DNA of 62,431 nt, filler included, from Collodictyon triciliatum (GCA_043381765.1; 4 parts of 4 records of this genome joined end to end with filler, not necessarily neighbours in it); one strand, 5' to 3'; shown: positions 3,082 to 62,200, numbered from the whole stretch's first letter. Translations and numbers: made by a program. The notes: a model not told the origin generated them from the letters alone.

Positions 3082-8299
<5,218 letters not shown>

Positions 8300-15427: not shown

Positions 15428-18400
15428 TCATTGGACTGTGCATTTTCTATCGCGCTCTCTTGCTTTTTCTGCGGGTGATGATTCCTGTGGTGCCTCTGTG
15501 AGCTGTGCGTCGAGGAGAGGGGATGTGGCTGCGTTGGAATCGCTATCTTCGGAATGCTGCCAACACGCAAAGGGCGTGGATGTTGCGTTTTGTTCATCAT
15601 GTCTTTTCTTCGCCTCAATCCAGCTGGCTGCTTCCATTATCTCGGACTCTGCTACAGAGTAAGAATCCCAGATATCCGGTTGATCGATTTTTGACAATAT
15701 TTCACCATTTAGTCTCAAAGACCTGACCTTGTCGGATGTCTTTTTTGATACATGGCCACCTTTTTTCTTGAGATATTCAATCAGCTCATACTGATTCAGC
15801 TCCTTGGCATATTGCTTCGAGGAACCTGTCACGTCCTTCGACACATCTTCTTTGGATAGCAAAATCAGTTCTTGGGCTTCCTTAGCATCAATATGGTAGA
15901 ACTGGATCATGTCTTTTTCATTCAGGCGAGTGTGTATTTCGTCAACTCGGTCCCACGACTCATTCCCCATTTTTTCAGAGAGCTTTTCGCACCGCTGATC
16001 ACGCAAGAACTCAACCAGCTCTCCTCTATACATGTCCATCAAATTAGAGTATAGCCCCTTGGGTAGCAGATTTTCCATCTTTTCTCTTGATAATTCACCA
16101 ACGCTCTCTTTCAAGGAACTCAAATAGGATCGAATGGAACCCAGCTTAGGGCGCAGTTTGTAGTTTTGCCTGAAACACACAGAAATCAAATGAATGAACT
16201 CTTTGGGTATTTTTGCAGGAATAGGAGGTCGAAGTCCACGAAGAACAAAGCTTTGGGGCTGAGATTCGCCCAAGAAAGGCTCTACGCAAGCAAACATAAA
16301 CCAAACAAGTAGTCCATATGCATATACATTGCTGAGCTCACCACGATGCCCAATGTTGACACCATCCTCTCCATATTGTGCCTCATCATCGTAGTAAGGC
16401 TTACAGACTACTTCATGAATCTCGGGTGCTTGCCAATTAGATGTCCCATCCTGCTTCCACTCGCCATACATCGTGGGCAGGTGAGAACCCACTTTGTCAC
16501 CTCCTCGGCGATTCACAATTCCAAAATCAGCAATCTTGCATATGTTCTTATGGACCATGATATTCTCTGCTTTCAAATCTTCGTGATAAATTCCATTTGT
16601 ATGCATGAATGAGAGCCCCTGCTCGATCTGAATACAGAAATTAGTAATCTGCTGTAAAGATGGTTTCTTCTCAGCCCTGGACTCAAAAAGTTTCTTCAGT
16701 GATACACCTGCATTCTCCATAATCATGTAAAATTCATCCTCTCTTCGAAAGACTCCAAATAATTTGACGACGTTCTCACATTCACGGCATTCGTAAATTA
16801 GACGAGTTTCGGCTATAAGTGACTCTATTATGTCAGACAGTGGGATTTTATGTGTCGGCTGCACAGTTTGAATCTTCACGACAGCTTCTACCCCACCAAA
16901 ATTCGTGGTCTTGTAAACTCTACCGAAAGAACCACTCGCTATATATTCCAAAAGCTCCACCTGTTGGTCAATCCAAATATCATGCAGTTTACTATCAAGC
17001 GTCCCAACCTCAACAGATTCTAAACTTCCTAATCCTTTGCTAGATTTTTCTCTCTTTAGTCTAGACCGGAATACCTTTGACATACCTACGATAATTAGTA
17101 GTGTTATTTTTTATTTTTGTAATTTATAACAAACATGAACTATAGTTTATAAAAATCGAGAGAGGGAGTGCCGATTATAGAAATAAAAAAAATTTTTTTT
17201 TTACTAAACCAAGACAATTATTAAAAGTACCTTCTTCGAGGTAAACCCGGCCGTGTTTGAGTTTTTTCCATGCTAATGCATGGCCTTGAGAACAAATAAT
17301 AATTGTTGATTCATCACCAGCTTCAGACATATCAACATATCCAATATCTCTATTTTCTTTTCGGCATTCGAAACATTCTAGTTGGGATTTTCTAATAAAA
17401 CGAGGCCGGATGGATAGAATTTGTTTTCGAAGATAATCAAGTACTTTAAATATATCGATAAAATCCCTGATAGTCTCCTTGGCCTCGTATTTTCGAACTG
17501 TGATTTTGATGGCTTGTGTTTTAATTTCAATCAAAACTCTTAAATCTTCCCCGGGAATCAACCCAGGTAAACTCCTTAGCTCTTCTGTGGCATGATTTGT
17601 TGCGTATTCGCGCTGTTGTGGTGTTGACAAATACATCAATGTAAGGTTTCTATAGAATATATGTTCATATTGAATACCTGGGGTCGCTCTTCTTGTGAGT
17701 CGAATTGCCTGCGTTACTACATAGCTCTTATCTGATGACTGGAGTTCGCCATCACTCAGCAAATTGCATGATATTTCAGAAACACAGTTAGACTCTGGCT
17801 TGGAATTCCAAACCGTTTCGATATTTTGGCATTCCTCCATCAACGATGGGAATGCAATGCATTCTTTGTTGAAGCGTATCCCCAAGCCAAAGTGATCAAA
17901 TATTCTAAATATCAAGTCATAAACGTCCTGATCTATCTCAACATTTAATTCTCGGTTAATTTTTTGCTTTAGTTGGCCAATAAGTAATATCCCACTAGAG
18001 TTTTTTCCTAAACCCTTGAAGCTGAAAACGCATTTGAATATATTGATCAAGAAGAGAGGATCTAGGAAAACAATCCCACGCATCTGCTCATAAGCGGAGT
18101 ACCAAACAATTGAACCTAAATCATGTAAAAATTTTAATGCCGACCTGGAAGTTCTTTCAATCATTCCAATATTCTCCTTGGCGTAAGAAAATATTTGATC
18201 GGTAGATACGTATTTCACTTGGTTAGCTTTCTCTTCAAGGTATTCCTTTAGCTGTATGTAAGAAGACGGAATATCCTTATTGACATTGTCTAATTGAGTC
18301 ATCCCTTGGTAAATAACTTTCTTCAGCTCAGAGATCCCCTCTCCCGTTTCGTTGCTTATGTATAACTTTGTTCTTAAAAAGGTGTGCAAATGGTTTGCCT

Positions 18401-20638
18401 CTAAAATGCCTTTTATTTCTTCTTTCATTTGAGTAGAGTACTCTCGATTCCGTTTGTCTTTATGGGTTCCAATAATAATGATTTTTGATCCAGGCGCAAA
18501 GTCATCCAACATTTTAATCCACCTACAAAGATTGTTTCTATCCTTCCCATGATCTAGCCTATATAAAATCAGGACGAGTGCTCCGCTGGATAGAAAGAAT
18601 GGGTGCGTTACTTGAAACTCTTCTTGTCCACCAAAATCCCACATTTTGATCGAAATTTTAGTCTGAAATACCCCACCAAAAGATCGTTCATCAATATCTA
18701 TACGAGCAATACCGTCCGTGCGCTCTCTTTCTTGGTCCACAGTATTTTTGAAAAACAAGGATTTTTGGGATATCGATTTGGTAAGTGTAGTTTTACCAGC
18801 CTCTCCCTCGCCTAGGAGCAAAAGTCTGCCTTGAGTCCACTTTTGTGTTTGTCCTCTGGTTAGTTCATAAAGAAAGTTGATTATAGCATCAGACCCTTGA
18901 TTGATCACATTTTGAGGGACATTCTTGATTGGATTTCCTTTGACAAGTAACGTGCCATTAGCCAACCTTTCCATAGAGCCCATAACCGAGGGCAAAATCT
19001 TAATCTAAAAAAAAATACACTTTTACAAAATATATGTTGGATTATCATATCCCACTCGAATGTCACCTTGTTTTCGTTCAGATTAATATCAATTAGGCGA
19101 GTTAATTTCCGAATATCGTCATGTATCTTGGATATCTAAAAGAATTTTTTGTGAGGAAAACAAATATAAAAGAATCAAGGAATTATATATGAATTGAGTG
19201 TGCCTACATTATTGAAAGAAAGGTCTAGGTTTTCAATCCAAGGCATATCAAAAAGAGCTGAAGGCATCTCCAAGAACTAAATGAATCCAATTAAAATTAT
19301 TTTATGGTATACATTTGCTTATTTTACTCTTTATTTATCTAAAAAAAAAGTTCATTCATAAAAAATGACTAATCGTTGAAAAAAAAAACTACTTGATTTC
19401 TTGATAAGCATAATTTTACAAGTCTGGTCAAGTCTTTCATTCGGTCTGGTAGCGATGATATCTTATTTTCGTAAATTATTTTATTAAAAAAATTAGGCCA
19501 AGTCAGGTTTTAAGAAAATAGTATGAATAAAATGAAAGCAATTAGTATTATCTTGTGCAAGAAAGAAACACCTTGTTATTTGTAAAGTCAATAGATTTGA
19601 ACTCTATTAGAGTCTCTATTTGACTATGGATATCAACGATCTCCTGATGAACAAATAAATGCTCGAACATGTCCAAAGTTTGAAGAGCCTCAGAAAAGTT
19701 TTTGCTCTGTCCATAATTTTGAGTATTGTTCCAACACGGTAAATTTGATATCCCTTTATGACATCTTTTGACGCTTATGTTTCCCTCGTGCTCCAGATGC
19801 AACACATACAAATTCGTCAGTGCAGTCATCCCAGATGGAAGGACCTCAATCTAAGGTGATAAAAAGTATGCATATTTTATTTTTAAAAAAAAAGATAATT
19901 AAATTGTAAGTTTAATGATGGTATTGACCCTAATGAAGATACACAAATTAAAATTACACTGTTTCCTTCGATATTAAGAGAATACAAAGCTGTCAAACTC
20001 GAAAAGGACTCAGGAAGACATTGAATGGAATTCTGTCGCAGACCCAGTTTACTCAGGTTAACAAGGGTTGATACTGCATCCGTAAACGATTCGAGGTGAT
20101 TTTGTTCGAGGTGAAGCCTATTTAACTTTGTCAGTAGAGATATTCCAAGAGGTAAAGCAGATATATGATTTTGATTAGCGATAAACTCTTTCAAGTTGGT
20201 AAGGTGTGATATTCCATCAGGTATGCTCGAAATATGATTCCTGCTAATGTGTAGAACCGTCAGATTTATCAAAAGAAATAGCGGTGACGGGACACTAGTA
20301 AATTCATTCTGGCTGATATCTAGTTCCAACAAATTCGTCAACAGCGATATTGAATTCGAAAAGGATGTGAGCTTATTTTGATACAAGTAAAGGGCTTTCA
20401 ATCCTATAAGATTGGCAAAGGACAGGGACAGGCATGAAATCTGGTTTTGGTGGAGATCCAATGCTGTCATGCAGGAGAGGTTTGATATTCCAACTGGAGC
20501 TTCAATCAAGGCCTTTCCGGACAATCTTAAATAGCAGCACTCGAGTAAAATCGCCTCCTTAGGTTCATGATAGGGCTTAAGCGAAGCCAGATATTCTAAT
20601 GGTGTTGTTTGTTCCTCATTTAAGTCTGTCACCTCCAT
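15428..20638 (-). CDS. Roco family protein: LRR-ROC-COR-kinase, putative SAM-like region, C-terminal CaaX; multi-exon
   Basis: LRRs (LxxLxLxxNxL) at 20638-19000. ROC motifs GEGEAGKTT, TDG, WDFGGQ and THKD. COR-like LKFLHDLGSIVWY…VFLDP. A phase-1 intron (GAAG|GTAC…TAG|GTATG) joins this to the kinase exon (ASGSFGRVY, VVK, HEDLKAEN, DFG, QAPE). The protein ends KCTVQ*. Confidence 0.9.
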
Positions 20639-20851
20639 GAAAGTATATTGGTAGAACTATTTTAAACTCCTAGTGAGAGATTTCCTTTAGAATGAAAAAA
20701 ACTCGGTGTCTATATCTTGCTTACTTATGCTATGGAAAATAACAAGAAAGCAGAAAGTTGATAAAAAGGTTTCATAAAGACAAGTGTGAAAATAGTAGTT
20801 TATGCTTTTCTATTGATTTATTATTTTTTTGAAATGGGGGATAGAAGGGAC

Positions 20852-22161: not shown

Positions 22162-23206
<1,045 letters not shown>

Positions 23207-25754: not shown

Positions 25755-28282
25755 TCACCAGAGCACCAGTTCTCGTGAGACGCCAGAGGATTTTTTCAAG
25801 GAAAGGCTTCTTCTAGGGTCTGTTTTACAAAATCGTAATGACGATATGTCACAGTTTCTCCAAGGGAATATACAATATGAAGGGTATTGTTCAATTTATT
25901 CATTTATGCAAGGGCACGAACCTTTACAAATGTTTTTGCGAAAGATTCCAATAGCGTCTTGAGGAGCTGCAAAGACGCCGTTTCATGTGACGGTGCCACA
26001 GGAGCAAATCCTATTGTCGAGTCTGAGTCGCGATATGAACTCAGTGCTGACCCTGAAAACGAATCACGGGGAGTCCTATAAAATCGGCACAGTATATCCG
26101 ATTAAACCATGAGTACTGCAAAGAAAATGGAAATGAGGGGGAGTTGACATATTGAATCGTGTGTTTAAAGATGAGTACTCTGTTGTTGGTGCTGCTTTGT
26201 TGTAAAGAGAGGACAACGCATGGTAGTCGATATCATTCCCGAAGATATGTTGCATAGCATTCCTGACCACCAAGTTATCCATCAAGAAACATCAATACAG
26301 AGACTGGATGGTTGGTTTTTGTTTCTATTTTTTACAATTGCTAAAGAACAATCTCATATTTAAGTCTCATAACAAATAAAATTAGCTATTGCTAAAACAG
26401 GATGTACCTCTTTGCTTGGTCCTCACTTTCTCCGTACAAAATAAACACAGATTCGAGTGCCTTCATGAAGGAGTTTAGTGCGTTTGGTCCATTTGCTTTT
26501 AATATGAGACAGAAATAAGTTAGCTTTACCAAAATATCCGCAGATAATAGTATATAAAATCAGGGTTTATTCTTCAACACGTAGATTATATTTACATATG
26601 AGGCTTTGGCTGCAGATAGACGTCAAGTCCGAGTCCTTTGTCCATTTGTATGTAGACAGTAGATTACTACTGGTGGGCACTTTTCCAACTTCGGGGGACT
26701 TTGATGAGTCCAAAGGATTCGACCGGGTTGGGCTCGGCGTGCGAAGAGAAACAGGAGTTGCCATAGGCGTGTTCCTTTGTTGGGAGCAATACAAGTCCAC
26801 AAATTTCATATCCTATTCAACTGTCAAGAACAAGAACGGATGTCGATAGAGACAAACATCATACATATACTCAGGGCTTACATGTGAGGACAAACGAGGA
26901 ATACGATAAAGAAATTCATATGTTATTGAGTTAATAAACACATGCTCAAAAAAAGTTTCAGCAAAAAGGTCTTAAAGTCTACGAATCTAAGTTTGATTTG
27001 GATACGATGTTCGTTTTCATCACGTGTACCACATCAAATAACTGCTGCACGCGTTCCTTTGAAAACCCTGGCTGAACTGTGACAAGTAGAGTAGTCTATA
27101 CATATAACATTAAACATCGATTTTCTCGCCAAGAGAATGAAAAAAAAAATGTGCACCACGTGGAGCTATCATCACTATATTTACAGAATAGGACAGACTG
27201 GATTACTGCAGGGGTATTACCTCAGGGATTCGGCTTTTGATATCACCAGAGACATCTTTTAGTTGAGAAGGAAGGCAAAGCAGAAATACGACTTTGGCAA
27301 CTCTCACAAGCTTCTCGCATGATAGGAATGTAAAAAAATGGTGAGGTGCAAACTTGCTGATTTAAATGACGATATTTATAAAAAAATATTATTTTTTACG
27401 ACAGCAAAAACAGAAAAAAGTCATCGTCATCAGATATGCAAAAATTCACTCCTGCATTATCGAATCCGCAGACCACACCGCGACTCGAGTATCTTATCAT
27501 GGCATCTGGCCTCCTTGTGGACACATAGATATGTTTTCCGTTCAACGTACCTAATATTAAAACGCGAACCTGATCATTTTTGCCTTTGTTGTATTCCCAT
27601 TATTATGTAGAAAGCGCACGTAGTGATGCAACCTTTGATTGAAAATGTAATACTTCAAACGGATTATGATATGATTCCTTTTACAAGTTAGATCAAATGA
27701 ATTTAAATACCAGAGTCAAGTAATAAATCCAAAAAGTTCTTTCCTATTTCGCCTGCACCGATTATCCCCACGATAAATTCAGTCGAATCAGGGAATGCAA
27801 TACTTTCAGAATCCTGGGAACCACCAAGCGTGCTATCGCCCAAATACAAACCCCCTCGCTGGGAGACAGGTGCCTTCTTTGATATATCGGTCTCAATAAT
27901 GGCCTCATTATCTGTTGGTGTACCTTCTGGAGGAGAATATGTTATGACTTAATATATTCGACTTGAATTCATGGTTTGACATCTTAATCTTGTTTAATTA
28001 CATACACATACATATACACATACATATACACATACATATACACATACATATAAATATAAATATACATATACAGGTCGATAATATGCAATCACCAAGTAAA
28101 GACGACTGTCCACGCCGAGATTTTAGCTCGCAAATCATAAAGATCTTTTGGACGACCCGAAGAAAGTAAAAAAGCTGCAATACAATACACTTTCGGACAA
28201 TAGGCTGAAAGGCCAACGCCGTATTTAAAAAGGGATACCGGAAGTCACCAGCAAGTCGCAAAATCTGCGTGTCCGAGAGCAT
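25755..28282 (-). CDS. NOXRED1: NOXRED1-like (pyrroline-5-carboxylate reductase-related NADP-binding protein), multi-exon
   Basis: Rossmann motif FIVGIIGAGEIG, then VSTRRP and VVFLLCLPSQL, which resemble the NOXRED1 motifs STRRP and IFLCCLPSQL. Exons join in phase to …SRELVLW*. Confidence 0.72.
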
Positions 28283-28981
28283 CGGAAACTCATCTGGGCA
28301 GAAACATACCAAAAGCAATAGAATTAATAACAACAACAACCTCTTTTTATACAATACCGCTCCTCTCCTACTAGCGAGTCCCTACCGCATTTTTTTTTTT
28401 TTTTGCAGTGTTAAATCAAGAACAAAATAAAAAAAAGATTAAAAAAAATAGAAAAAGAGATGTTTTCACGTTGAGAAAAGCAAAGAAAACTCACGCAACC
28501 ACGTCGGGTAATGACCTTTCCACATCTCCAATCCTTTGGAGTCTGTCTTTCGATGCGCAGTTCCCGGACGAGACGACATCCTCTCCCGTTTTTCTAATAC
28601 ATTTGTTTCCGATCAGCAACACACCGCGAAGCAGCTCAAAGCCCCGCGCAAGAAAAAGACAGCGGAAGCCAAAGCCCGATCAAATCCCGTCGGGCGCCGC
28701 CTCTCCATCCCACATTAGGTATGTGCACGCAGCATCTCCATTCTTGGCATGAGTGTATTGGTTCTGGAGGAAAAGAATATGAAGAGGAAATGAGGGTGGG
28801 GGCAAAACAATTTGATTAATGGCGGAGTGCATAGGCGAAAAGGCGCAACGGACTGACGAGTCGGTTTGGGCGGACTCGTCAGCTGGGCGGGAAGGAGGAG
28901 TGACGGAAGGCCTCCGGATCCAAACAAGGCAGACATGCAAATCACAGAGACTTTGGCGCCCAACGCAAAGCACGCATGCGT

Positions 28982-29393
28982 TTACATGACAGTGCATTTT
29001 TTGCGTCCCTGGGGAGAGTTCGCGCCGCCGTCCTCAGAGTCTTCGATTTTGCCTGTGGATTTGCGACGGAGGCTGATGGACCTTCTGGATTTCTGCTTGG
29101 GGGGCTTGTCTTCTACTCCCGAGCTGCCTGCCTCGGCATTTTCAGAGTCGCTCTTGGCGGGTGTTTCGGGTGACGGCACAGGTGTGCGGGGCGATTCGGG
29201 AGTCTCTGATGCGCTGGTTGACACGATAATTTCATCGGGGGACACTGCGGGCTCCGTTGTCTCTGTGATGGTCGGCTGTGGTGGGCTTGCAGGGCTCTCG
29301 GCAGGGCGTGTGTCTACGGAGAAGGACCCGCTGGATGATTGGCGGCTGAGCATGTCCCGCTCAAGCTCAGCTTCGATGGCCTGTTGTGATGAC

Positions 29394-29426
<33 letters not shown>

Positions 29427-32400
29427 AATAATAATAATAAAACTAAAACTCAAAAAACAACCTTGTAGTGCTCCATGTTACGCTTCATGATAATCTCCAG
29501 TGGACCAAGAATCTCCACGAATTTGTTACGTTCCAGGTATACGCACTCAACCTTGCCATCGGCGATGATGTTTGCTCGGCGAGGGTTGTTTGTAATCAGC
29601 GCCACCTCACCAAAGTAATCGCCTTTGGTGTAGTCCTTGGCTAGGCGGCCCGCTGGTAGTCCAGGTCCCGGGCTCCTTGTGCAAAAGGCCTTACCCTGTG
29701 TTGTGTTAAAGCAGAATTGTTGGAAAGAAAATGAGTGTCAACATGAGAGTTGATAACTAAAGTTTTAACTATGTGATGTAACCAAAGTACTCATGACTAT
29801 TTATAACATAGGAATATTAAAAATACACAAAACATATACAATAATATGAAAAAGCTACTATTAGAGAATGAATAATTCAGCTCTAAATACTAATACAGTC
29901 CTGATGCTAGGGTGATAAGATGAATATAGACAGGGTATTACCTCGAGCAGAATAAAGAAGCGATCTCCTCGTTCCCCTTGAGTGATAATGTATTCGCCGT
30001 TTTGGAATGTTGCTTGAAGAAGCTGGTCTGATAACGCCCTCCGTTCTTCCTTTTTTAGAGAAGCTATGATAACATTTAACAATCAATATTTCGATTACAG
30101 TGTATATCAAAAGAGAATCAGAGCCGATGTTCTGATTCAAAAATGAGACTGGTGGTTTGTTCCTTAAATTGCGAAGGAAAATTATGGACTATTGTATACC
30201 TCTTCAGATTTTTCTAGAAAGATATAAAAAAAATTTTAAAAAAAGAAAACGAAAGGGAAATCATCTTACCCAAGATGGGAACTTGGTCCAAAAACGTCTC
30301 ATAGACTTTCTTGTAGTGTTGGATGTTTTCGCGGAGAAGGTCCTCACAAGGTCCCAACAAGCGCACAAATACCTCGCTGGCAAGTCGCAACACTCTACAG
30401 TCACCGTAGGCGATGACGTTGGCCGCGCGAGGCTTGTTAGTCAACAGGGCAATTTCTCCAAAGTAGTCGCCGCGGTATAATCTCTTCAACTCAACAGGTG
30501 CAGCGTTTGCGCCAGGAGTCTTGTAAACCACGGCCTCACCCTTGTTATAAAAACATTGGAGGAGAGGATAAGCATATTACACTGATGATACAAATTCGGT
30601 TTCAAGGTAACGACAAAAAGGAAAAGAAGGCATGCTGCAATAGCAACTTGGTTACGAAAGATGTGGCAAAATATCGACCGTGAGCACTTACAGATTCCAA
30701 TATGTAGAATGCGTTTCCTTCTTCTCCTTCACGAATAATATGTTCGCTGTCCTTGAAATTGATTTCCTCCAGGGCATCAGCAACACGGAAACGCTCAAAC
30801 TCGGAGAGAGGGTCTTTCGAAAGTAAATTAAGCTGGTCAAAACTGTTTCCCCCTTTTTTGACGAATCACTTATCCAAAATTTCGAATTTACATGAATGAG
30901 ATAAACGCACTCAGGATGGGGACTTGCTCCAGGAATTTCTCGTACATTCTACGCTTCTTGTCGCTGGAATCCATCATAATGTGACGGAAGGAAACAGAGT
31001 CCAGAGCCCATAGCAACCCCGAAGTTGCAGCCTATTTTCACAGCACCCAATAAGGATGAGAGAAGTATAAAGACACAATTTCTCATTTTATTACGTCAAA
31101 TGGATATACATGCAAAAATAAATCATACTCGGACAGTGGCTGCGCGGGGACAGTTATACATCAAGGCTAATTCTCCGAATGAGCCACCTGAGGAAACTTG
31201 AACAACCTTTTTAGGCTCGCTTTGTTTATCTTTGGCGACGAAGATGTCAAAGGTTCCATCCTCCACAACATAAAAGTTGTCTCCCTCGTCAACTGACACG
31301 AATAAGAATATATTAGTATTCCTCCATTTTTTTTTTTTTACATAAAGCTAGCTCACAGAGCTAATAAATGATGGATATAAAACAAAACAAAACAGTGAAA
31401 ATAAAGAAATAAAAAAGCTTAATGCGAATAACAGATTGCCAATAAATTAATGCGAAGTTACACACATTGACGAATGACGTCCTCCCCAGGCTGCACGCGT
31501 CTTTCGGCGAAGGCGTCGATGAGTTCCTGCACTTGGTCCGGGTCAAGATGGGAGAAGAGGAAGCTGCTCTTGATAATCTTTCTCAATCGGCCAGTGGCAT
31601 CCTTAGATTTTTCAATTACCTAGAGATAAATGTGATGAAATAATGTTCGGATATTAGTTCCGTGTTAACTTACTTGTCTGAACGGAAATGTAACTTAATT
31701 TGATCAGAATAATGGTCCTACAATCCACTCAAGTGTGTATAAATATAGGGTATGGTGTTGACATTGAATAGGATTAATTACCCTCTTTTCTTGCTTGGAA
31801 GAGGACTCAGTAGATGGCGCACTGATGGCTGTTCTTCTTTTTCTCTCACGGCCACCGACAGGAGGAGTTACCTGCGCAGGTACAGCAGAATCCTTTGTTT
31901 CAGGATTAGCAGCAGACTCTTGGGCGCGCCTCTCTTGCATTTCTTTCACCAAATGTTCATATGCCTTGTACTGCGACATGTTGCGCATCAAAATGTCCTC
32001 ACATGGACCCAGCAGCTCGTTGAATTGGTCACGATTTAGAGTGACACAGGAGAGATTACCCTTGGCAACGATAGATGCCGCTCGAGGTGCGTCAGTCAAC
32101 ATGGCCAGTTCACCAAAGTAGTCTCCCTTGGAATATTTCATGACCTCAACTGGGTCTCCACCTGTGGCTGGTGTCTGATAGGCGGATGCATTTCCCTGAA
32201 CAACTTCGATATTAAAATGATGTCCCTCCAAGATAAACTCTGTCAGTAGTCTGAAATCGATGTGTGCTATGGGAAGGATTTAGCATTACCATCTCAACGA
32301 TGAAAAACCTATCCCCTCGATCGCCCTGACGAATGACAACATCGTTTTCCTTATACTGCATGGGCTGCAATACCTTGGCTATCTGCTGTCTCTCGAAAGA

Positions 32401-34502
32401 TGTCAGGGAGGCTAAGCGTATGTTAAGGAAATATGAGGACAACAAGGCACAAATATGACGCATCTATTTCTAAGGAGAATCCTGCGAATTGGATCTGGGT
32501 GGATTATTTTCTTTTTCATAAAAGAAAAATACGTCGAAAACGTACACAGGAAGGGAACTTGCTCCAGGAAGACCTCAAACATCTTGCGGAAGTGCTTGAT
32601 GTTTTGACGAAGGATATCTTCGCATGGTCCCATCAAGCGAGTGAATACCTCGTTCGATAGGCGGAGGGCCTATTATATGTTTCAAATAAGACATCTAGGT
32701 TGGTGGTTATGAAAGTATCATGGGTCTGACTTTCACAGTCGAAGAGGGCTACGAAAGTACCTTGGCTGGGCCGTTGAAAGCAACTACATTGGCATTTCGG
32801 GGCTTGTCGGTGAGAAGAGCAACCTCGCCAAAGTAGTCGCCAGATTCAAGACGACGAAGCTCGATTGGTTCCTCACCAGCGTGCGGGGTTCTGAAAATGG
32901 TAGCTTCGCCCTGTGGAATAAGGAAATGATTAGAACGTGCACAAAATTATCCTTGTGGTGTGATATGAAAATATATAATGGGGGAAAACAATGGCTAGCG
33001 AAACAAAGCCAACATCTTCACCATCCTGCACAAAATTGAAAGGAAGAATAAAAATATATATAATAGGGGGAAAAAATAACGATCGTGACAGGCGAGACTA
33101 AGAAAACAGATCGCACGCACGGCGTCAAGACTGAGAGAGAGAGAAAATGACAGATAAGTACAGTTTGATAGTTTCATACCTCCACCAGAATAAAGAAAGC
33201 GTCTCCAGCTTCTCCTTGGCGAATAATATAATCTCCTTCATCGTAACTGACTTCTTCCAAAGCATCAGCAAGGATGAACTTTTCAAGTTTAGACAGAGGC
33301 TCTGGGATGTTTAAATGAGAAGAGAATACCAAAACCAAACATCATATCAGAGGACCACAGTTAGCAGTATGGTGACAGGTCTCATTCCTTTTTCTTTTTT
33401 CGTTGTTATTATCAAAACTAAAAAGAAAAATAAGCCAATCATGAATTTCAAAATGAAAAAGGGGGTTGACTAAGAAGGACAAAAGACCTAGAATTGAGAC
33501 ATTCTCAATGAAGTTCTCGTATAGATTGCGCTTCTCTGTATTCGAGTGAACGAGAATGGTTCTGAAGGTGGTGCGATCGAGAGCCCACACTTTTGAAGAC
33601 TCAGAAGCCTGTATAGGAAGTTTGGGTCATAAGCTCACTCTCAACCCAAGAAACATTTAAACATCGAGGCGACTGGAGCAATTTCATAACCGGAACGATT
33701 TCTGTGCAACTGTTTCGCACTCATATAAAATCCTAATTCATATAAAAGCGATGTAAGGATTGGTATAATAATTGAAGATGGCATACTCTGACGGTAGCAG
33801 CGCGAGGGCAATTATACATCAAAGCAAGCTCGCCGAAGCTTCTGCCCGGCCCAGCAGTTCCAACCGGATTCCCATGGACGATGAACTCAAAGAGACCAGT
33901 TTCAACGATGTAAAAGTAGTCACCCTGGTCCCCTACGTCCACATCACCGGAGTTAAGCAGCGCTCCAAACAAGAAGCACTCGTATATATATATATAAAAA
34001 GAAAAGAAAAGAAAAGAAAAGAAAAGAAAAGAAAAGAAAAGAAAAGAAAAGAAAAGAAAAGAAAAGAAAAGAAAAGAAAAGAAAAGAAAAGAAAAGAAAA
34101 GAAAAGAAAAGAAAAGAAAAGAAAAGAAAAGAAAAGAAAAAGACAGCTATTCCAAACAAACAATATATGAAATGAAGACAAGCATAGTCCCAGAAACTGA
34201 GGAAGAAGCAGCAAACCTTGCTTGATAAGATCCTCGCCAGGCTTCACCAGCACCTGAACCATGGCGTCGGCAACTTCCTGCAGCTGCTCAGAACTCAGAT
34301 GCGAAAAAACCACGCTCTTTGCGGCAGCCTCGCGGATGTGCTGCGTGGCCTCGGGCGTCTTTGGGATCACCACGCGGGCATTGCTTGTGTTGGACGTCGA
34401 TGAAGACTCGGCACTCACGGCCTGGCGTCTGCGGCCCCGCTGCATGTAGCGCTCGGCCTCAGGCGGAGGTAATTCGGCCACGGCTTCGACTTCGGCGTCC
34501 AT
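28982..34502 (-). CDS. PKA regulatory-subunit-like protein with 2 inhibitor sites, 6 cNMP-binding domains and a C-terminal CaaX; multi-exon
   Basis: RRRQAVSAE is followed by PBCs [32 protein letters not shown] and [25 protein letters not shown] is followed by [32 protein letters not shown] and [16 protein letters not shown]. All junctions join in phase through GT-AG introns. The S/P/E-rich tail ends GRKKCTVM*. Confidence 0.88.
33997..34141 (+). repeat. (AAAAG)n intronic microsatellite
   Basis: Directly visible in the sequence. Confidence 0.95.
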
Positions 34503-35609
34503 CGGCTCTGGGTTGATCGGCTGGAAAGGAGGCGGTCTGGTGTTAGTATGCGGTGATCACTTTCGTTGGTCTATAAGCCTTCTTTTTCTCTTTTCTTTTC
34601 CTTTTTCCTTTTTTTTTCTTTTTCTTTTTCTTTTTCTTTTTCTGTTGCTGTCTGACAAAGTCGTGCTTGATTCGAGTGCTGATCAAGGCCTGGTGTCTTT
34701 TTCGTGGGTCTTTGAGTCATCCAATCTTTGTTGGTAGGAAGAAGGGTATGTAGGGTTTTGGTTTCCGCGAGGCAATTATTGTGATCGGAGCTCATTTGCG
34801 CGGTGGCAGCCCCGATTTTCTTCCTTTCTTTTTTTGCTTCTTTTTGCTTCTTTTTTGTTTCTTGCTTGTTTCCTTAGAACTGGGCAGGGCAGCTTTTACC
34901 GGCGAGGTAAAAAAAAAAAAAGAGCCAACGGCTGCGAGTGGGCGTCTCTCCTTCCCTATGCTTTCCTTTCACTTCCTGGACATGAACTAACTGTTGGGGA
35001 ATTCTCCAGTCTTCAGCGTGGCAATTGCGTCTTTGACCCACGCGACCGCCGCCTTCTTCCACAGGCCGACTCTCTCGCTTTGGGTCGTTATGTCTCGCTT
35101 TGTTGGATTTGTGATGTGCCACAATCTCGCTTGGCGTCTGTGAGCGTTTCCCTGTGCGTTGCTGGAATTCCTGCACATCCAAAGAGAGTCCGCCAAGATA
35201 TGCCATTCCATTCTCGAGTTACAAATTATTATGTAATCTTATGTGTATTTGTGTACTAAAATTTCTGTATGTAGGGGTTTTTATTTTATAAAATGTTTAT
35301 ATGATGTATATATATAAGTAAAATCCGCAATTGGAAGTATAATTTGGTATGATAAAACTCTAAAGCGTTTTCTTTCGTTTTTTTTCTGCTTCGTTGCCTT
35401 CAAAACAGAGGTAAGAGACAAAGTATCTGACGCGACTCGTTGGTTCGCCAGTGCCTGCGAGGGAGAGCGGTCTGGGGCTCTGCCCACTCTTTTCTGTTTT
35501 TGTTTTATTTGTTTGTGTGAAAAGCCTCGTTATTTTGTTTTATATAAAACAAATGTATACCAAGAATGCCTTTCAAAAACCTCACAGGTAGAATATGTAG
35601 CCCGTAGGA

Positions 35610-38600
35610 ATGGTTCACGTGGTCGTGAGGAAGCAGGAGGTTATCGTCTTGGTTCTTGTGGGTTTTGATTAATAGTTTCCAAGGAATCTCCATTCAACCC
35701 ACCCGCCATGTCTATTATATCATATAATGAGTTTTCCTTCTGTCTTTGCTGCGTTTAAATTTCAAGGTTCTCCTATCACTCAATAAATAAGAGTGAAGGT
35801 ATACAAGTCAGACATTTGCTTCCAGTTTTTTGTTGCTTTTTTTTTTCTCCAAGTTAATGAGAAGGACTGCATATATCGGCGTCTCATGATTTTGCCAAGT
35901 AATACTTGTCCCAAACGCCCGTGCCGTGTTTCTTTCAGGACTTTCTAAAGCAGAACGGACTAATCAGAGCGATGCGCGGGCTGGAAATAGAAACAGGGTT
36001 GCGGAGTGACCTTTTTGGAAAAGAGATACAACACATTCGTGACATGATACTTGACGGCAATTGGGATGGTGTCGAGCGCTATCTTCGTCCATACCAGGTA
36101 ATGTCAGTATAAAGAGTAGAATAAAAGACAAACACAAATACAAATACAAAAAAATAATACTCTTATTTCCCACTTACTGCATAATTCTTTTTGAGATAGA
36201 GCCATTTACAATTCTATCGAGATTTTATATTATACATTATCTTTTAATGATATTTTTTTTTGTCAATTTGGCATCATGCAAAACCCATGGTTTATTATCA
36301 TAATCTTTCAAGTCGCAAGATATTCCATTATTTTCTCTTTCTATTACACTATGTTGAATGATACCAAAAGTGTCGATTACTTACACTTGCAATTATAGTG
36401 ATTAAAAAAACATAATTACATTTTTTTTATCGGACTCTCATATCCGTAGCAATGAGAAAATCAATAACCCTCTCATTTGCACGTTTATTCTAATAGAAAA
36501 GATTTGGGGGTGATTATGGAAACATTTTATTTCTTCTGAGGAAGCAGAGGTTCCTGGAGTCAGTTGAATACCAACATCTAAATCCTGCAGTGGTGCAACT
36601 GGTTGACGGGCTTAAGGTTATATATCCACCATGGTCTTTTAATTCCTCATAAATCTCGTTGTTCTGTTGAATACTAGCTACATATTATCAATGCATCCTG
36701 TGAAAATCTTTGAATCGAATAAAGAAAAAATACGTCATGTAAAAATCCATGAATTTGACTGTCACATCGACCAACACATTTCTCAGTACTATCTGTAATT
36801 GGTTGTGTGGCTTATCAATCTTTTGAAACACGACTTGGTGTATTGAAGGACCAATCATTCACATTATATTCTCTTTTCCAAACAAAAAAAAAAAAAGGAT
36901 CTTGAACACCAATGCTCTCCTCAAGAATTCAACGAGTTGTGTTATTTAATCACGCTACCTCGGATAGCTGAACATCCCAGATATGTCCATTGGACCCCTA
37001 TGAAGGTATTCCAGTTTCGCTTTTTTCTTGAATGATTTTAATAATTTACAGGGAAATCACCGATATCCAACTTATCGCATATATTTATTATATTGTCTTT
37101 AATGTTCGCTTTGAATAGAATAAAGGAAAAAAAAAGTATCTTTAGGGTTCAGCACATGAACACTAGATTTCTATACTTTTACAATTCACTATCAGATGGT
37201 AAATATACCCCCCTTGATGGTCTGGACTGCTTCAAACTTATTTACCGTAATTATTAACTAGGGACGGCATCTGACCTTTGAAGCAATATACCCAGTCGCT
37301 GAGATGGTATTTGGGTCAAACCCACAAGGGCATGATTTTGTACCTAATCGATTGGAGAAACTTTTGAAACAATCACTTTCCTTTCAGGTAATTACGGCAT
37401 TATCGTAAAATAAAATATTCAGAATCCATATTTGACATTTTTTTTTTCAGATAGCTAGATGGAGAACGCACTACCCACAAGCTCCTCCACTACCAGACCC
37501 ATTGTATGCAACCCTATTGGATGATTTTGGGTATGCAGACCCTGAAGGTATTTCTTTTAAGATGATAATTGAAAAACGAATCAGTCATACTATTTTCTAA
37601 GTGGGTAAAACAGCCCCGATACTCCTATGTAAGGCGTTTTTTTTTTTAATAAAAATTTCAAAATAAAATTACCATAGAAACGCCCCCTATGACACAGGCT
37701 GCACTTCACGAAATGAAATCGATTGGAATTGAATTGTAGGGTGTCTGTGTGATTCTATATTGTTGTCATAAGCTAGATGCTTTCGTGTTTTATAATTGCC
37801 CTTTCTAACCTCGCCGCTCTTTGAATCGAATAAAGGAAAAAAATTTTCCTCTTTCTAAAAAAATTCCTTGATATTTCGAAACCAATATCATCATCAATCT
37901 TTTCCTAACATGATTTTTCTTTTATAGGATTCAAATTATTTTCTTACAATTTTTTTTGTTTCGGTCATATGCATAGTGTAAATATGGACCATTATGATGA
38001 ATCCAAGGCCGATGATTTTACCCATGAACCAATAACACCAGAGGTTCAAACAATAAAGGCAGAGTAATGGTCTATTTGTCCCAAAAATGAAATATTCAAT
38101 CCTTCTTTATGTCAAAAGAAATAGTTTACCAAGTAACCTTAGATTACTAGCTTTGTGAAGGTTTAGTTATGTGTAATGGAAATATTTGATTAATTAATGA
38201 GATTGTTTTTATCAAATATTGGGACATTCATCTTGTATATATGCGCGCTTTATGACAAAGTCTTGCAAGTCCGAAGTCGCGAAGTCCCTCCCCAGTCAGT
38301 CGACATGTTCCACTGAAAACTCCTACAGAAAAAAATGAAGGTGCTCAAATTTACCATATTTCCCCGCTTCAATAATTTATTCACTCCAATTTCTCGTCTT
38401 CGATACTCCGACAGAACCAAGAGACAGAAGGCCGAAATCATGGAGCATTGACCCACCTCGTAAGTCTCTATGACCTATAATCCATAAATTATGCATTTTT
38501 TTTATTTTTATCCTTCACTGTTACGTGGATCTTTAATTTTTTTTTTAATTTTTTGGAATTTTATTTGGCAGGTGTCAATATGAAGAGGTCAGAGCACGCC

Positions 38601-59230: not shown

Positions 59231-62200
59231 ATGGACCCTGCAAACGCTGAGTCCGATCTTCAAACAGCCTCCGATCCTGTCGACGTCCAAAAAGGGCCTT
59301 CTTCTCCTATGCAACTAGGTCTTTGCTATTGCTGCTTCTTTCTTGTTCTTGTTCTTGTTCTTGTACTTATTATTATTCTAAGGCGAATTTCTGTTGCCCA
59401 CGGCTTGGAAATCATAGTTTCGTACCATCCTTACTTCTCTTTTTGCACTTCCACCCACTTCGATTAACGCACGAAGAAACCATAGACACAACTCAAGACT
59501 ATGTGTACGTTGAGGCTGAAGTACCTGTGCAGTCTGAACCCAAGGAAGAAGCCGTGGATGATTCACAGGAAAAGTATACTATGAGACCCGTGCGGTGTTT
59601 TCTCTGACATTTCTTTGTTTTTCTTTTTCCTTGCATTTAATATTTCCATGCTGGTCATGCTTGGCTCCTGTTCACGTCTGAAATCGCACGTTAACTTTGG
59701 CCTTCCTCTTTTCTTATATCTTTCCCTATTGTACTTTTTTTCTTTAAAATAAAAAGACTATTCTCCTAGGGTTACCCCGAAGCTGCACATCATCGATGGC
59801 GATTGCACTTTTATGTAAGAGCCCATTTTATAGTGGATTATCCTTCTAGAAAGGAATTTGTTTGAGAGCCCTTTCTGTAACACACGTGATACACAAGACC
59901 CTCCATTTTGATACCAACATATCGTTTATCATGTTCCCTCTCCCGTTCACTCTATAATTTCGTTTTATTGACTATTTATTTACTGCCTCTTCTTTTTTCC
60001 TTATAGCCTATCCTACATAACCTCAACATTTGGAAGTGTATTCGATATCTTAACTTATAATATTAATATTCACACGATTGCGCGCTTTGTCTGATTCTTC
60101 TTAATTGAAACAATTGTAGTGGCGATATTGACCACTATTACAGAGCTGTTAAGATGGCTGATGTTGGTCTTGGCTACCACACATTGACAATATTTGGATC
60201 CCAATCGACTGGAAAAAGTACTTTGTGATTAACAGCTATTTCTTTCTCGATTTGAAAGCTTTTTACCTGCCCATCTTTTTGTGACGGATATATTATCACC
60301 ATTTCATTACTATTTTCAAACAATTTGTACACATATTCCACTATCTTTTCTATCTTCACACATTACCATGAATGCTTTTCTGCCTCTTTTTGCTCCTCAT
60401 ATTTTTTTTTTTGGTTCACAGTGTTCTCAATAAAACAATACAACCTTGCAGGTACCCTTCTAAATGACCTGTTTGGAACCTGTTTTGAAATGATGGATGC
60501 ATCACACGGACCTCAACAAACAACAAAGGGTGTTTGGTTGTCGAAGGCTCACAAGGGCAAACTTTTCATCTTTGATGTGGAGGGCACTGACAGTGGTGAG
60601 CGTGGAGAAAATTCATTGGTAATTTACCCTCAAACAAAGCACTATTAAATTTCCTTTGCATTTGATCACAATGTATGATAGCCTTGAAACTACATTCCAA
60701 TCTATTATACATACACTTATGATTAACATTTATAGATTGAACGCAGGACAAGCTTATTTTCAATTGCTGTTGCTGAGGTGGTTATCATCAATATGTTTGC
60801 TGGTAATGTTGGTGAGTCGGTGTCATATTTCATATATCTCTAAGTGGCACATATGGCACTCTCTACCATTTGATCAATACCCTTCGTCCTCAATCCATTT
60901 GTAGGCACTTATCACGGAGCCAATATTGGATTGTTAAGAAACATCCTTGAGGTCAACCTTCAAGTTTTTGCTGTGAACAAGTACTAGTTGATGAAATATG
61001 CAGCCTCAACAGCCATGATGCATGCATTATCTGCCCCGTTCTATTTATTTATTTATTTTAATATTCAAATCCAAGATCAATACTCTGTTCACATTAACCC
61101 ATACAAACATTCATTGCAGATCTGTCACAAAAACGACCATCATGATCATACTGAGAGACTACTTCCCATACCTGAACATTGATCACCTGCGCAACCGAAT
61201 CACTGGTCAGATTACAAGTCTTTGGAGTAAAATCTCATTCGTACGTTCACCGCGCATCTGCATTCATGATTTCTATACAGAGCGAACACACTAATATTCT
61301 TTTTCACCAATGTTAAGTATGTTGGTATCACTCACCTTTTTATGATCGCACCATGAAACTCGGAAATTGATGTACATCCCCTCTCGCTATATTTTTTTTT
61401 TAAAAAATTAAAAAAAAAAAACATTTGAAATGGAATATCTTCTGCTCAAAACTAACTTTTCCTTTCTTTGTTAATCTAATATTAGCCCGAGGGGTACGAG
61501 AACATGAAGTTCGAAGACTTTTTTACCCTTCATGTCATCGAAATGCCATCAAAAATGGTTCTTCCTGACCAGTACCTCGAGACCGTTGTTCGTCTTCGGG
61601 AATTGTAATAGCACGATGCTTTTTCTGTATCAACATTATCTACTGCGTCTAAAATATGACTTCTTATATTTGATCTTCTGTACCGATTTGAAAAATAAAC
61701 AAAATTTAAACTCTTTCTAGCTTCTTGAATCCCAACGCAGAGAATTATGTATACCAAGAGTCTAACACAAAGGCTGTACCTATTGATGGATTTGGTTCTT
61801 ATGTCCGGCAAATATGGGTACACATATCCACGCTTATTAAAAATCATATATTTCGATATTATTTTAAAGGAAATATGTCCTTTATGAATATATACTAAAT
61901 AGTGTATGATAATGTGCAACATATACAATAGGATTCAATCTGCAGCAATCATGACCTTGATATCCCATCCGAGAAGGAGCTCCTTGCTACACATCGTTGC
62001 AATGAAATAGCGGAGGCCGTGAGTCGACTTTATAAACATATCTTTGCATATTTTTATTTTGACGATGAATAGCAAGTTTGGTAATGCGGTACGGTGTCTC
62101 GGACACTATAGGATGATTTTTCTTCTTCTGATTTAACTTCCCTGCCATTTTTCAGGTGCTTCAAGAGTATAATTCTGAAGTTTCCAGGGTCCTCCTTGGT

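Follow-up and report, generated by a model that had tools for sequence, protein, structure and literature searches.

Does the minus-strand gene at positions 28982-34502 of a stretch of Collodictyon triciliatum DNA (GCA_043381765.1) encode a single polypeptide that takes the place of a dimer of protein kinase A (PKA) regulatory (R) subunits? The stretch, referred to here as the window, is 62,431 nucleotides long and consists of four records of this genome joined end to end with filler. PKA serves as the standard example of a kinase under allosteric control, and the geometry of its R2C2 holoenzyme (two regulatory and two catalytic subunits) is normally set by the dimer of dimerization/docking (D/D) domains and by A-kinase anchoring proteins (AKAPs). 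An initial annotation of the window had proposed for this locus one chain with two pseudosubstrate sites, six cyclic nucleotide-binding (CNB) domains, no D/D domain and a CaaX end. The present analysis shows that the gene is expressed and specifies a single-chain, internally duplicated PKA R subunit, in which a module of inhibitor site, CNB-A, CNB-B and CNB-B' occurs twice and is followed by a CaaX tail; that it works in the manner proposed below is probable.

Pieces resembling PKA R subunits lie serially in stop-to-stop frames on the minus strand of 28982-34556. Assembled from the exon coordinates and translated, they give a gene of 16 exons and 3072 nt (stop codon included) encoding 1023 amino acids with no internal stops; the frame runs from an ATG at 34502 to a TAA at 28984-28982, and its ends coincide exactly with the limits that had been assigned to the gene. 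Regarding expression, the RNA evidence consists of assembled contigs of four public runs (X1-X4) from three studies, mapped to 28600-33975, with exon 1 outside this range; X1 and X2 were classed as RNA by guess, their contigs nonetheless being spliced and polyadenylated. The exons listed here were placed by assembly, by alignment to two related Diphylleia rotans proteins (P0001 and P0002) and by these RNA-derived contigs.

34502-34217, 33932-33787, 33608-33488 and 33301-33180, minus strand: exons 1-4
32910-32761, 32669-32546, 32411-32290 and 32195-31782, minus strand: exons 5-8
31619-31466, 31292-31129, 31031-30911 and 30813-30692, minus strand: exons 9-12
30540-30270, 30063-29942, 29695-29462 and 29380-28982 (with the stop codon), minus strand: exons 13-16
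28737-28981, minus strand: 3' untranslated region, with poly(A) addition at about 28737 (the X1 and X2 contigs end at 28737, followed by a 23-letter run of T on the plus strand)

All 15 introns are supported by RNA-derived contigs. An X1 contig of 3261 nt comprises a poly(A) end, the 3' untranslated region, exons 16 to 2 and then a 204-letter loose end past 33934, of which the first 30 letters, read in reverse complement, give the end of exon 1 and thus support intron 1. Twelve introns are visible as joints, which occur in runs of all three studies, many of them being repeated in X2, X3 and X4, while introns 29380-29461 and 30064-30269 are supported by the adjacent record coordinates of X1 contig pieces. 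The joint between exons 15 and 16, which brings the CaaX tail into frame, is present in all four runs. Borders of the GT..AG type were found in 14 introns, and the acceptor AG of intron 1 is at 33934-33933. The start of exon 2 was set at 33932 because of the alignment to P0001 and P0002 and of the RNA loose end at 33934; an alternative acceptor at 33962 is in frame and flanked by AG, yet it adds 10 residues that are missing from both D. rotans proteins. A last-exon acceptor at 29443, giving a short His/Tyr-rich end without a CaaX box, was ruled out, as the contigs of all four runs (X1-X4) connect 29462 with 29380.

The end of CNB3, the linker and inhibitor site 2 are all located within exon 8 (32195-31782) in one open frame, and because they share one exon the two halves cannot be separate genes. 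Gene predictors can fuse tandem copies, and some very long multi-module matches from metagenomes might be such fusions, but an origin of the present layout from two adjacent genes or a mis-joined model is effectively refuted: the locus is one gene with one mRNA, a single spliced, polyadenylated contig crossing the half-to-half junction, and two independent transcriptome open reading frames (ORFs) of a related species have the same full-length layout.

The introns also hold features of their own. Summed contig depth in intron 4 (32920-33099) reaches 575 in X1 and 372 in X2 versus about 20 elsewhere, loose ends of many contigs fall at 32990-33058, and Rfam shows nothing there; the peak could reflect a short AT-rich element common to many transcripts or low-complexity cross-matching at 90% likeness. 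Intron 1 contains a perfect AAAAG microsatellite of 28.8 copies (144 bp, 33997-34140), and a TGA repeat of 13 copies (29387-29426) lies within the 81-nt last intron, intron 15.

The encoded protein is composed of a pseudosubstrate (inhibitor) site with three CNB domains, a linker, a second site with three CNB domains and a tail of about 130 residues ending in CTVM. Its features, with the basis for each, are as follows.

34407-34433, minus strand: inhibitor site 1, RRRQAVSAE, residues 24-32, Ala28 at P0; conserved in P0001 and P0002
33537-34355, minus strand: CNB1, A-type, about residues 50-168, exons 1-3, cassette at residue 129 (Pfam match in exon 2; CNB-A clade of the domain tree, support 99/94)
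32595-33536, minus strand: CNB2, B-type, about residues 169-300, exons 3-6, cassette at residue 253 (Pfam matches in exons 4 and 5; tree)
31947-32594, minus strand: CNB3, B'-type (extra), about residues 301-440, exons 6-8, cassette at residue 385 (Pfam matches in exons 7 and 8; tree)
31815-31841, minus strand: inhibitor site 2, KRRTAISAP, residues 476-484, Ala480 at P0; in exon 8, shared with the end of CNB3
30960-31592, minus strand: CNB4, A-type, about residues 505-625, exons 9-11, cassette at residue 586 (Pfam match in exon 10; CNB-A clade)
30316-30959, minus strand: CNB5, B-type, about residues 626-757, exons 11-13, cassette at residue 710 (Pfam matches in exons 12 and 13; tree)
29369-30315, minus strand: CNB6, B'-type, about residues 758-895, exons 13-16, cassette at residue 842 (Pfam matches in exons 14 and 15; tree)
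28997-29368, minus strand: Ser/Pro/Glu-rich tail, probably disordered, residues 896-1019 (composition; no Pfam family)
28985-28996, minus strand: CaaX box CTVM, residues 1020-1023, preceded by KK (translation; ends of P0001 and P0002; exon 15-16 joint)

Of the 16 exons, 10 gave translations that match the Pfam family cNMP_binding (E 4e-11 to 0.004) and six gave no match; the matches tile into the six domains that had been predicted, and the feature as a whole is far beyond chance. Extraction of the phosphate-binding cassettes likewise bore out the initial annotation, with Gly-Glu and Arg kept in all six and the residue next to the Arg being A, N, A, A, A and R, respectively, never Thr. A Thr in this position is linked to cyclic GMP (cGMP) preference. 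Both sites read in the translation are of the RI type with Ala at P0, and site 1 pairs with RRRRGAISAE of PKA RI-alpha when aligned via P0001. The 132-residue tail contains 18% Ser, 12% Pro and 11% Glu, ends in GRKKCTVM and carries an RRKS motif at residues 996-999 (29068-29057), 21 residues N-terminal of the CaaX Cys.

Regarding the D/D domain, exon 1, the D. rotans proteins P0001 and P0002 and 11 upstream minus-strand ORFs at 34543-36173 gave no Pfam match to families of this type (RIIa, Dpy-30). Only about 20 residues precede site 1, there is an in-frame stop 19 codons 5' of the ATG, and P0001 and P0002, both labelled as complete ORFs, share the start Met and have equally short N-termini, beginning about 20 residues before site 1; the proposed lack of a D/D domain thus agrees with the orthologs. 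Similarly, the Pfam family Pkinase was not matched in any of the 16 exons, nor in P0001 and P0002.

The same architecture is present in a second collodictyonid. A search with exon 8 among longer proteins returned 256 matches, of which the top two were P0001 (1049 amino acids) and P0002 (1116 amino acids) from the EukProt transcriptome of Diphylleia rotans. Aligned over 1014 positions, P0001 shares 829 residues (82%) with the window protein; P0002 shares 566 of 1004 (56%). Each of the two has both inhibitor sites and six cNMP_binding stretches, with no other Pfam family above cut-off. With full-length P0001 as query, 134 of 7999 scored candidates reached E <= 1e-50 (120 matches listed); among the matches listed, P0002 alone spans most of the query (86%), the coverage next in rank being 66% at 28% identity. 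Among 271 R-like proteins, P0001 and P0002 were the only ones to combine at least six cassettes and two sites with a C-x-x-x end, and the other C-x-x-x ends (2 of the remaining 269, P0122 and P0167) belong to probably truncated proteins and apparently arose by chance. In the surveyed data, only collodictyonids appear to have six CNBs, two sites and a CaaX end in one protein.

The C-terminus is a point on which the relatives are informative. Where the window protein ends in CTVM, P0001 ends in KKCIVM and P0002 in KACVIV, so that the predicted CaaX end recurs in 3/3 collodictyonid sequences; the Cys is kept at -4 in all of them though the preceding 100-200 residues have diverged almost completely, and basic residues precede it in each. 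An RRxS motif 20-29 residues ahead of the Cys is also kept in all three (RRKS, RRKS and RRLS). Met as the last CaaX residue favours farnesyltransferase, and CTVM, with lysines in front of it, resembles a farnesylation signal assisted by polybasic residues. A soluble protein, in which CTVM is not a working prenylation signal and the tail is used otherwise while the rest of the model stays intact, is an unlikely alternative in view of the Cys placed exactly at -4 and of the N-terminal, acylation-like MGCGAS of the multi-module R-like proteins P0135, P0153 and P0279, which suggests a recurring need for membrane attachment. It is nonetheless favoured by a tail that is poorly conserved save its end, by the CVIV of one paralog and by the chance occurrence of C-x-x-x ends among the other R-like proteins, sequence position being all that speaks for prenylation.

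Concerning family placement, the solved structures that best matched P0001 were of RI-alpha (E 2.3e-76, query residues 6-303, inhibitor site included), followed by RII-alpha/beta (E about 6e-71, query residues 473-759), the best cGMP-dependent protein kinase (PKG) giving 4e-58. Of the proteins compared, the single-module P0144 is nearest to the modules (49-52% identity); then come fungal PKA-R (43-48%), the three-CNB fused kinases of protists (37-40%) and a PKG-like protein (32-34%). By E-values and identities the chain is closer to bona fide PKA-R than to PKG or the fused kinases. Features of the PKA-R family that are present include the Arg-Arg-x-(Ala/Ser)-hydrophobic site before the first CNB, found twice, and CNB-A followed by CNB-B with Glu and Arg; the family norm is exceeded by one additional B-type CNB per module, and the kinase domain and the Thr after the cassette Arg that characterize PKG are both missing. 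By sequence and layout the protein is therefore a member of the PKA-R family, the D/D domain excepted. A Protein Atlas search returned only generic PKA RII clusters at scores of 0.92-0.93, a recognition under the usual level.

These comparisons also bear on whether the protein might instead regulate another AGC kinase in trans, PKG-like or other, and perhaps be responsive to cGMP or to both nucleotides. The fused kinases P0188, P0221, P0229 and P0242 align in one stretch with the modules of site and three CNBs and are likewise without Thr after the cassette Arg, which makes this residue a weak guide to selectivity in such lineages. However, their identity to the modules is below that of fungal PKA-R or P0144, their second and third CNBs form a clade of their own apart from CNB2/5 and CNB3/6, and solved PKA-R chains outscore PKG by far; a partner of this kind is accordingly quite improbable.

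The conservation of the inhibitor sites addresses a further possibility, namely that the protein is a membrane-tethered sink or scaffold for cyclic AMP (cAMP) whose inhibitor-like sites are vestigial or serve other partners, with the PKA catalytic subunit not being held. If vestigial, sites in disordered linkers should have decayed, whereas all three proteins (that of the window, P0001 and P0002) retain the two Arg-Arg-x-Ala-hydrophobic-Ser-Ala sites despite 56% overall identity, at a constant distance from the A-type CNB that matches solved RI-alpha holoenzymes. Six intact cassettes on one chain with a membrane-targeting end would suit local buffering, and CNB arrays elsewhere do occur with other partners (P0127, 12 CNBs with adenylate kinase; P0129 and P0132, 15 CNBs with RhoGEF), but on balance we give such a sink little credence.

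An AlphaFold2 model of P0001, made from a 45-row alignment, has a mean predicted local distance difference test (pLDDT) score of 77 and a predicted template modelling (pTM) score of 0.41. The six CNBs are modelled confidently, with block means mostly of 85-98, and values below 50 are found at residues 1-11, 20-32 (site 1), 296-311, 453-480 (linker and site 2) and 909-1049 (tail, 30-40); low scores at the sites, linker and tail are as expected if these are flexible docking segments. In Foldseek searches, the whole model gave query template modelling (TM) scores of only 0.13-0.23, packing being undefined, so that the comparison is informative for single A-B pairs; the A-B pairs of the model fit R chains in the holoenzyme state (TM 0.63-0.68) better than cAMP-bound R (about 0.5).

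For a duplicated PKA R subunit, the following mechanism is proposed. Each Ala-P0 site would fill the active-site cleft of one PKA catalytic subunit, with the adjoining A domain docking on the same subunit, so that one chain would hold two catalytic subunits and a covalent link would stand in place of D/D-mediated dimerization. Kinase release would follow cAMP loading of the cassettes, up to three per module, and the B' domain would be an extra gating step and third cAMP site in each module, probably shifting threshold or cooperativity. Cys1020 would be farnesylated and, with the nearby basic residues, would tether the complex to the membrane without AKAPs, and the conserved RRxS of the tail could be a feedback site through which the released kinase may loosen the tether. 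A broader proposal is that PKA of collodictyonids is a self-contained membrane device, in which a farnesylated chain replaces D/D dimer and AKAP, carries two catalytic subunits and six cAMP sites, with a third gate (B') in each module, and is detached through RRxS, tandem R chains being a widespread, overlooked alternative to the D/D domain in Rhizaria, Euglenozoa, ancyromonads and CRuMs that is often equipped with lipid signals of its own; we put this forward tentatively, as a possibility that the evidence does not yet favour.

Several observations weigh against this picture. In module 1, Leu (L189 of P0001) occupies the position of RI-alpha Trp260, a residue that we take to cap cAMP in the A site, and if it does so, the behaviour of the A site may differ from that of RI-alpha. 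We infer selectivity for cAMP rather than cGMP only from cassette residues, and the function of the CaaX box only from its position and conservation; P0002 ends in Val, a less typical last CaaX residue. The pTM of 0.41 leaves the packing between domains undefined. Finally, between the ATG and the in-frame stop 5' of it there is a candidate acceptor, and because the RNA starts short of the ATG, it is the orthologs and the Pfam-negative upstream ORFs that speak against a further coding exon on the 5' side.

The history of the domains was examined phylogenetically with 69 CNB units, taken from 22 proteins after one false motif match had been dropped; the tree is based on few columns, and many of its forks are unresolved. 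The A clade (99/94) takes in CNB1 and CNB4. Within the B clade, CNB2 groups with CNB5 (99/94) and CNB3 with CNB6 (99/86), and in both groups the branching order is (P0002,(window,P0001)). Modules 1 and 2 are 50.5% identical over 424 residues and have six intron positions in common, one further intron being private to module 1 and two to module 2. Because of the tree and the six shared intron positions, the order of events is read as duplication of a B domain and then of the module, and the simplest history, starting from an ancestor of PKA-R type, is a B-domain duplication giving A-B-B', a tandem duplication of the whole module and a subsequent gene duplication in collodictyonids into P0001- and P0002-type genes. 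In the same tree the modules of P0011 (Fabomonas tropica) pair together, as do those of P0003 (Lapot gusevi), which suggests that the tandem duplications in these two proteins were independent.

The gene is a naturally occurring R-R on a single chain, with one cAMP domain more in each module and a predicted lipid anchor of its own. It thereby provides a ready test of the share of dimerization in cooperativity and of the effect of a third CNB on the activation threshold, and it also bears on the localization of PKA in lineages without AKAP docking. The CRuMs, the lineage to which the host belongs, branch near the base of Amorphea, and because of this position the gene informs the ancestral range of PKA designs.

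Elsewhere in the window, three long ORFs at 15428-20656 on the minus strand encode leucine-rich repeats (19883-20656), Roc and COR-A (17175-19004) and a protein kinase (15428-17110), and together look like one ROCO/LRRK-type kinase gene. Further Pfam matches at 7895-8299 (plus strand), 22400-22879 (minus strand) and 60256-60648 (plus strand) were to a RING/U-box-like zinc finger, a Nas2 N-terminal domain and a RHD3/Sey1-type GTPase. A weak LisH/CTLH-like ORF (35903-36112, plus strand) lies about 1.4 kb upstream of the R gene and divergent from it, and an ATACAT-type simple repeat (28002-28072) lies 665-735 bp past the poly(A) site at 28737. The Rfam scan of 28000-36000 gave three matches, all far under gathering scores.

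Other proteins encountered in the searches combine CNBs in different ways. P0188, P0221, P0229, P0242 and their relatives have three CNBs fused to an AGC kinase, several of them with acylation-like starts (MGNxx or MGCxx) and with Ala, not Thr, after the cassette Arg; fused three-CNB kinases are labelled as cGMP-dependent in some sources, and their true ligand may be different. In P0127 (3779 amino acids), 12 cNMP-binding domains occur together with three of adenylate kinase and, as judged by motif, six R-like inhibitor sites, and P0129 (2659 amino acids) and P0132 (2651 amino acids) have 15 cNMP-binding domains with RhoGEF domains; these three may be real arrays or fused gene predictions. R-like CNB pairs with RhoGEF, according to precomputed Pfam labels, were seen in P0218, P0228, P0321, P0323, P0332 and P0334, one of them from the slime mould Ceratiomyxa fruticulosa, and such fusions, if true, tie cAMP sensing directly to activation of Rho GTPases.

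How far the design is new was judged against the literature and the surveyed proteins. The initial annotation had put it forward as a possibly undescribed, non-canonical PKA design, and this claim holds for the combination of the layout, which was found only in collodictyonids, but not for its elements, as multi-module R-like chains are widespread, P0144 has three CNBs, lipid anchoring occurs in Toxoplasma and the D. rotans transcriptome already contains the proteins. In a literature search with subscription papers and supplements largely outside its scope, no description was found of a tandem, three-CNB or prenylated PKA-R, nor of the tandem R proteins of Lapot, Leptophrys, Nonionella, Fabomonas and Ploeotia. 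In the available portions of PMC12083921, whose ortholog supplement might list such proteins, the passages with 'tandem' or 'fusion' do not concern R architecture, and the terms 'Diphylleia', 'CRuMs', 'prenyl' and 'four CNB' are absent; the available passages of bioRxiv 10.64898/2026.07.23.740246 concern Stentor PKG only.

Among known systems, PKGs with three or four CNBs (Plasmodium PKG, 5dyk and 5dzc; P0188, P0221) resemble the window protein in having more than two CNBs in a row behind an autoinhibitory segment and were the top Foldseek matches by E-value to the whole P0001 model, yet they are only 17-19% identical to it in the structure alignment, possess the kinase domain that is absent from the window gene and have CNBs in separate clades. 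Chains with at least two R modules and, by a scan for the catalytic-loop motif, without a kinase domain were found in Lapot gusevi (P0003), Leptophrys vorax (P0272), Nonionella stella (P0141), Fabomonas tropica (P0011) and Ploeotia vitrea (P0275), which are 37-44% identical to P0001; Pfam gave only cNMP_binding in P0003, P0011 and P0141. In contrast to the window protein, all five have two rather than three CNBs per module and none has a CaaX end. Single-chain proteins with twice a site and two CNBs thus occur in Rhizaria, euglenozoans and ancyromonads, and 13 of 28 kinase-less R-like proteins with 3-5 cassettes have at least two sites by the strict motif (Lacrimia lanifica being among the named cases), a count that is a lower bound, since the strict inhibitor-site expression scores zero sites in dinoflagellate P0280, P0283 and P0287 with four CNBs. 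Chains of three modules are represented by P0128, P0134, P0138, P0149 and P0153.

According to the available portions of PMC6152992, Toxoplasma gondii PKAr1 is an R subunit without D/D domain that attaches to membranes through a lipid modification of its own and not via AKAPs, and because it is without this domain, the D/D domain is not universal in the PKA-R family. Its lipid signal differs, being N-terminal myristoylation and palmitoylation (PMC6152992) as opposed to the C-terminal CaaX of the window protein, and it has one inhibitor site, its regulatory domain (5j3u, 261 residues) aligning with a single two-CNB stretch of the query. The same module type, one site followed by A-B-B', is seen in P0144 (431 amino acids), which matches each module at 49-52% identity. 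In the tree its second CNB groups as sister with CNB2/5 (100/90) and its third falls outside CNB3/6, and the protein differs from that of the window in having a single module and no tail or CaaX. The solved PKA RI-alpha (4mx3, 2qcs, 6no7) and RII (3tnp, 2qvs), to which P0001 is 44-46% identical in structure alignments, share with the window protein the Arg-rich site with Ala at P0 (RI-like), the order CNB-A then CNB-B and the Glu/Arg cassettes; unlike them, the window protein has no D/D domain, adds a B-derived third CNB to each A-B pair, doubles this unit and ends in a long CaaX tail.

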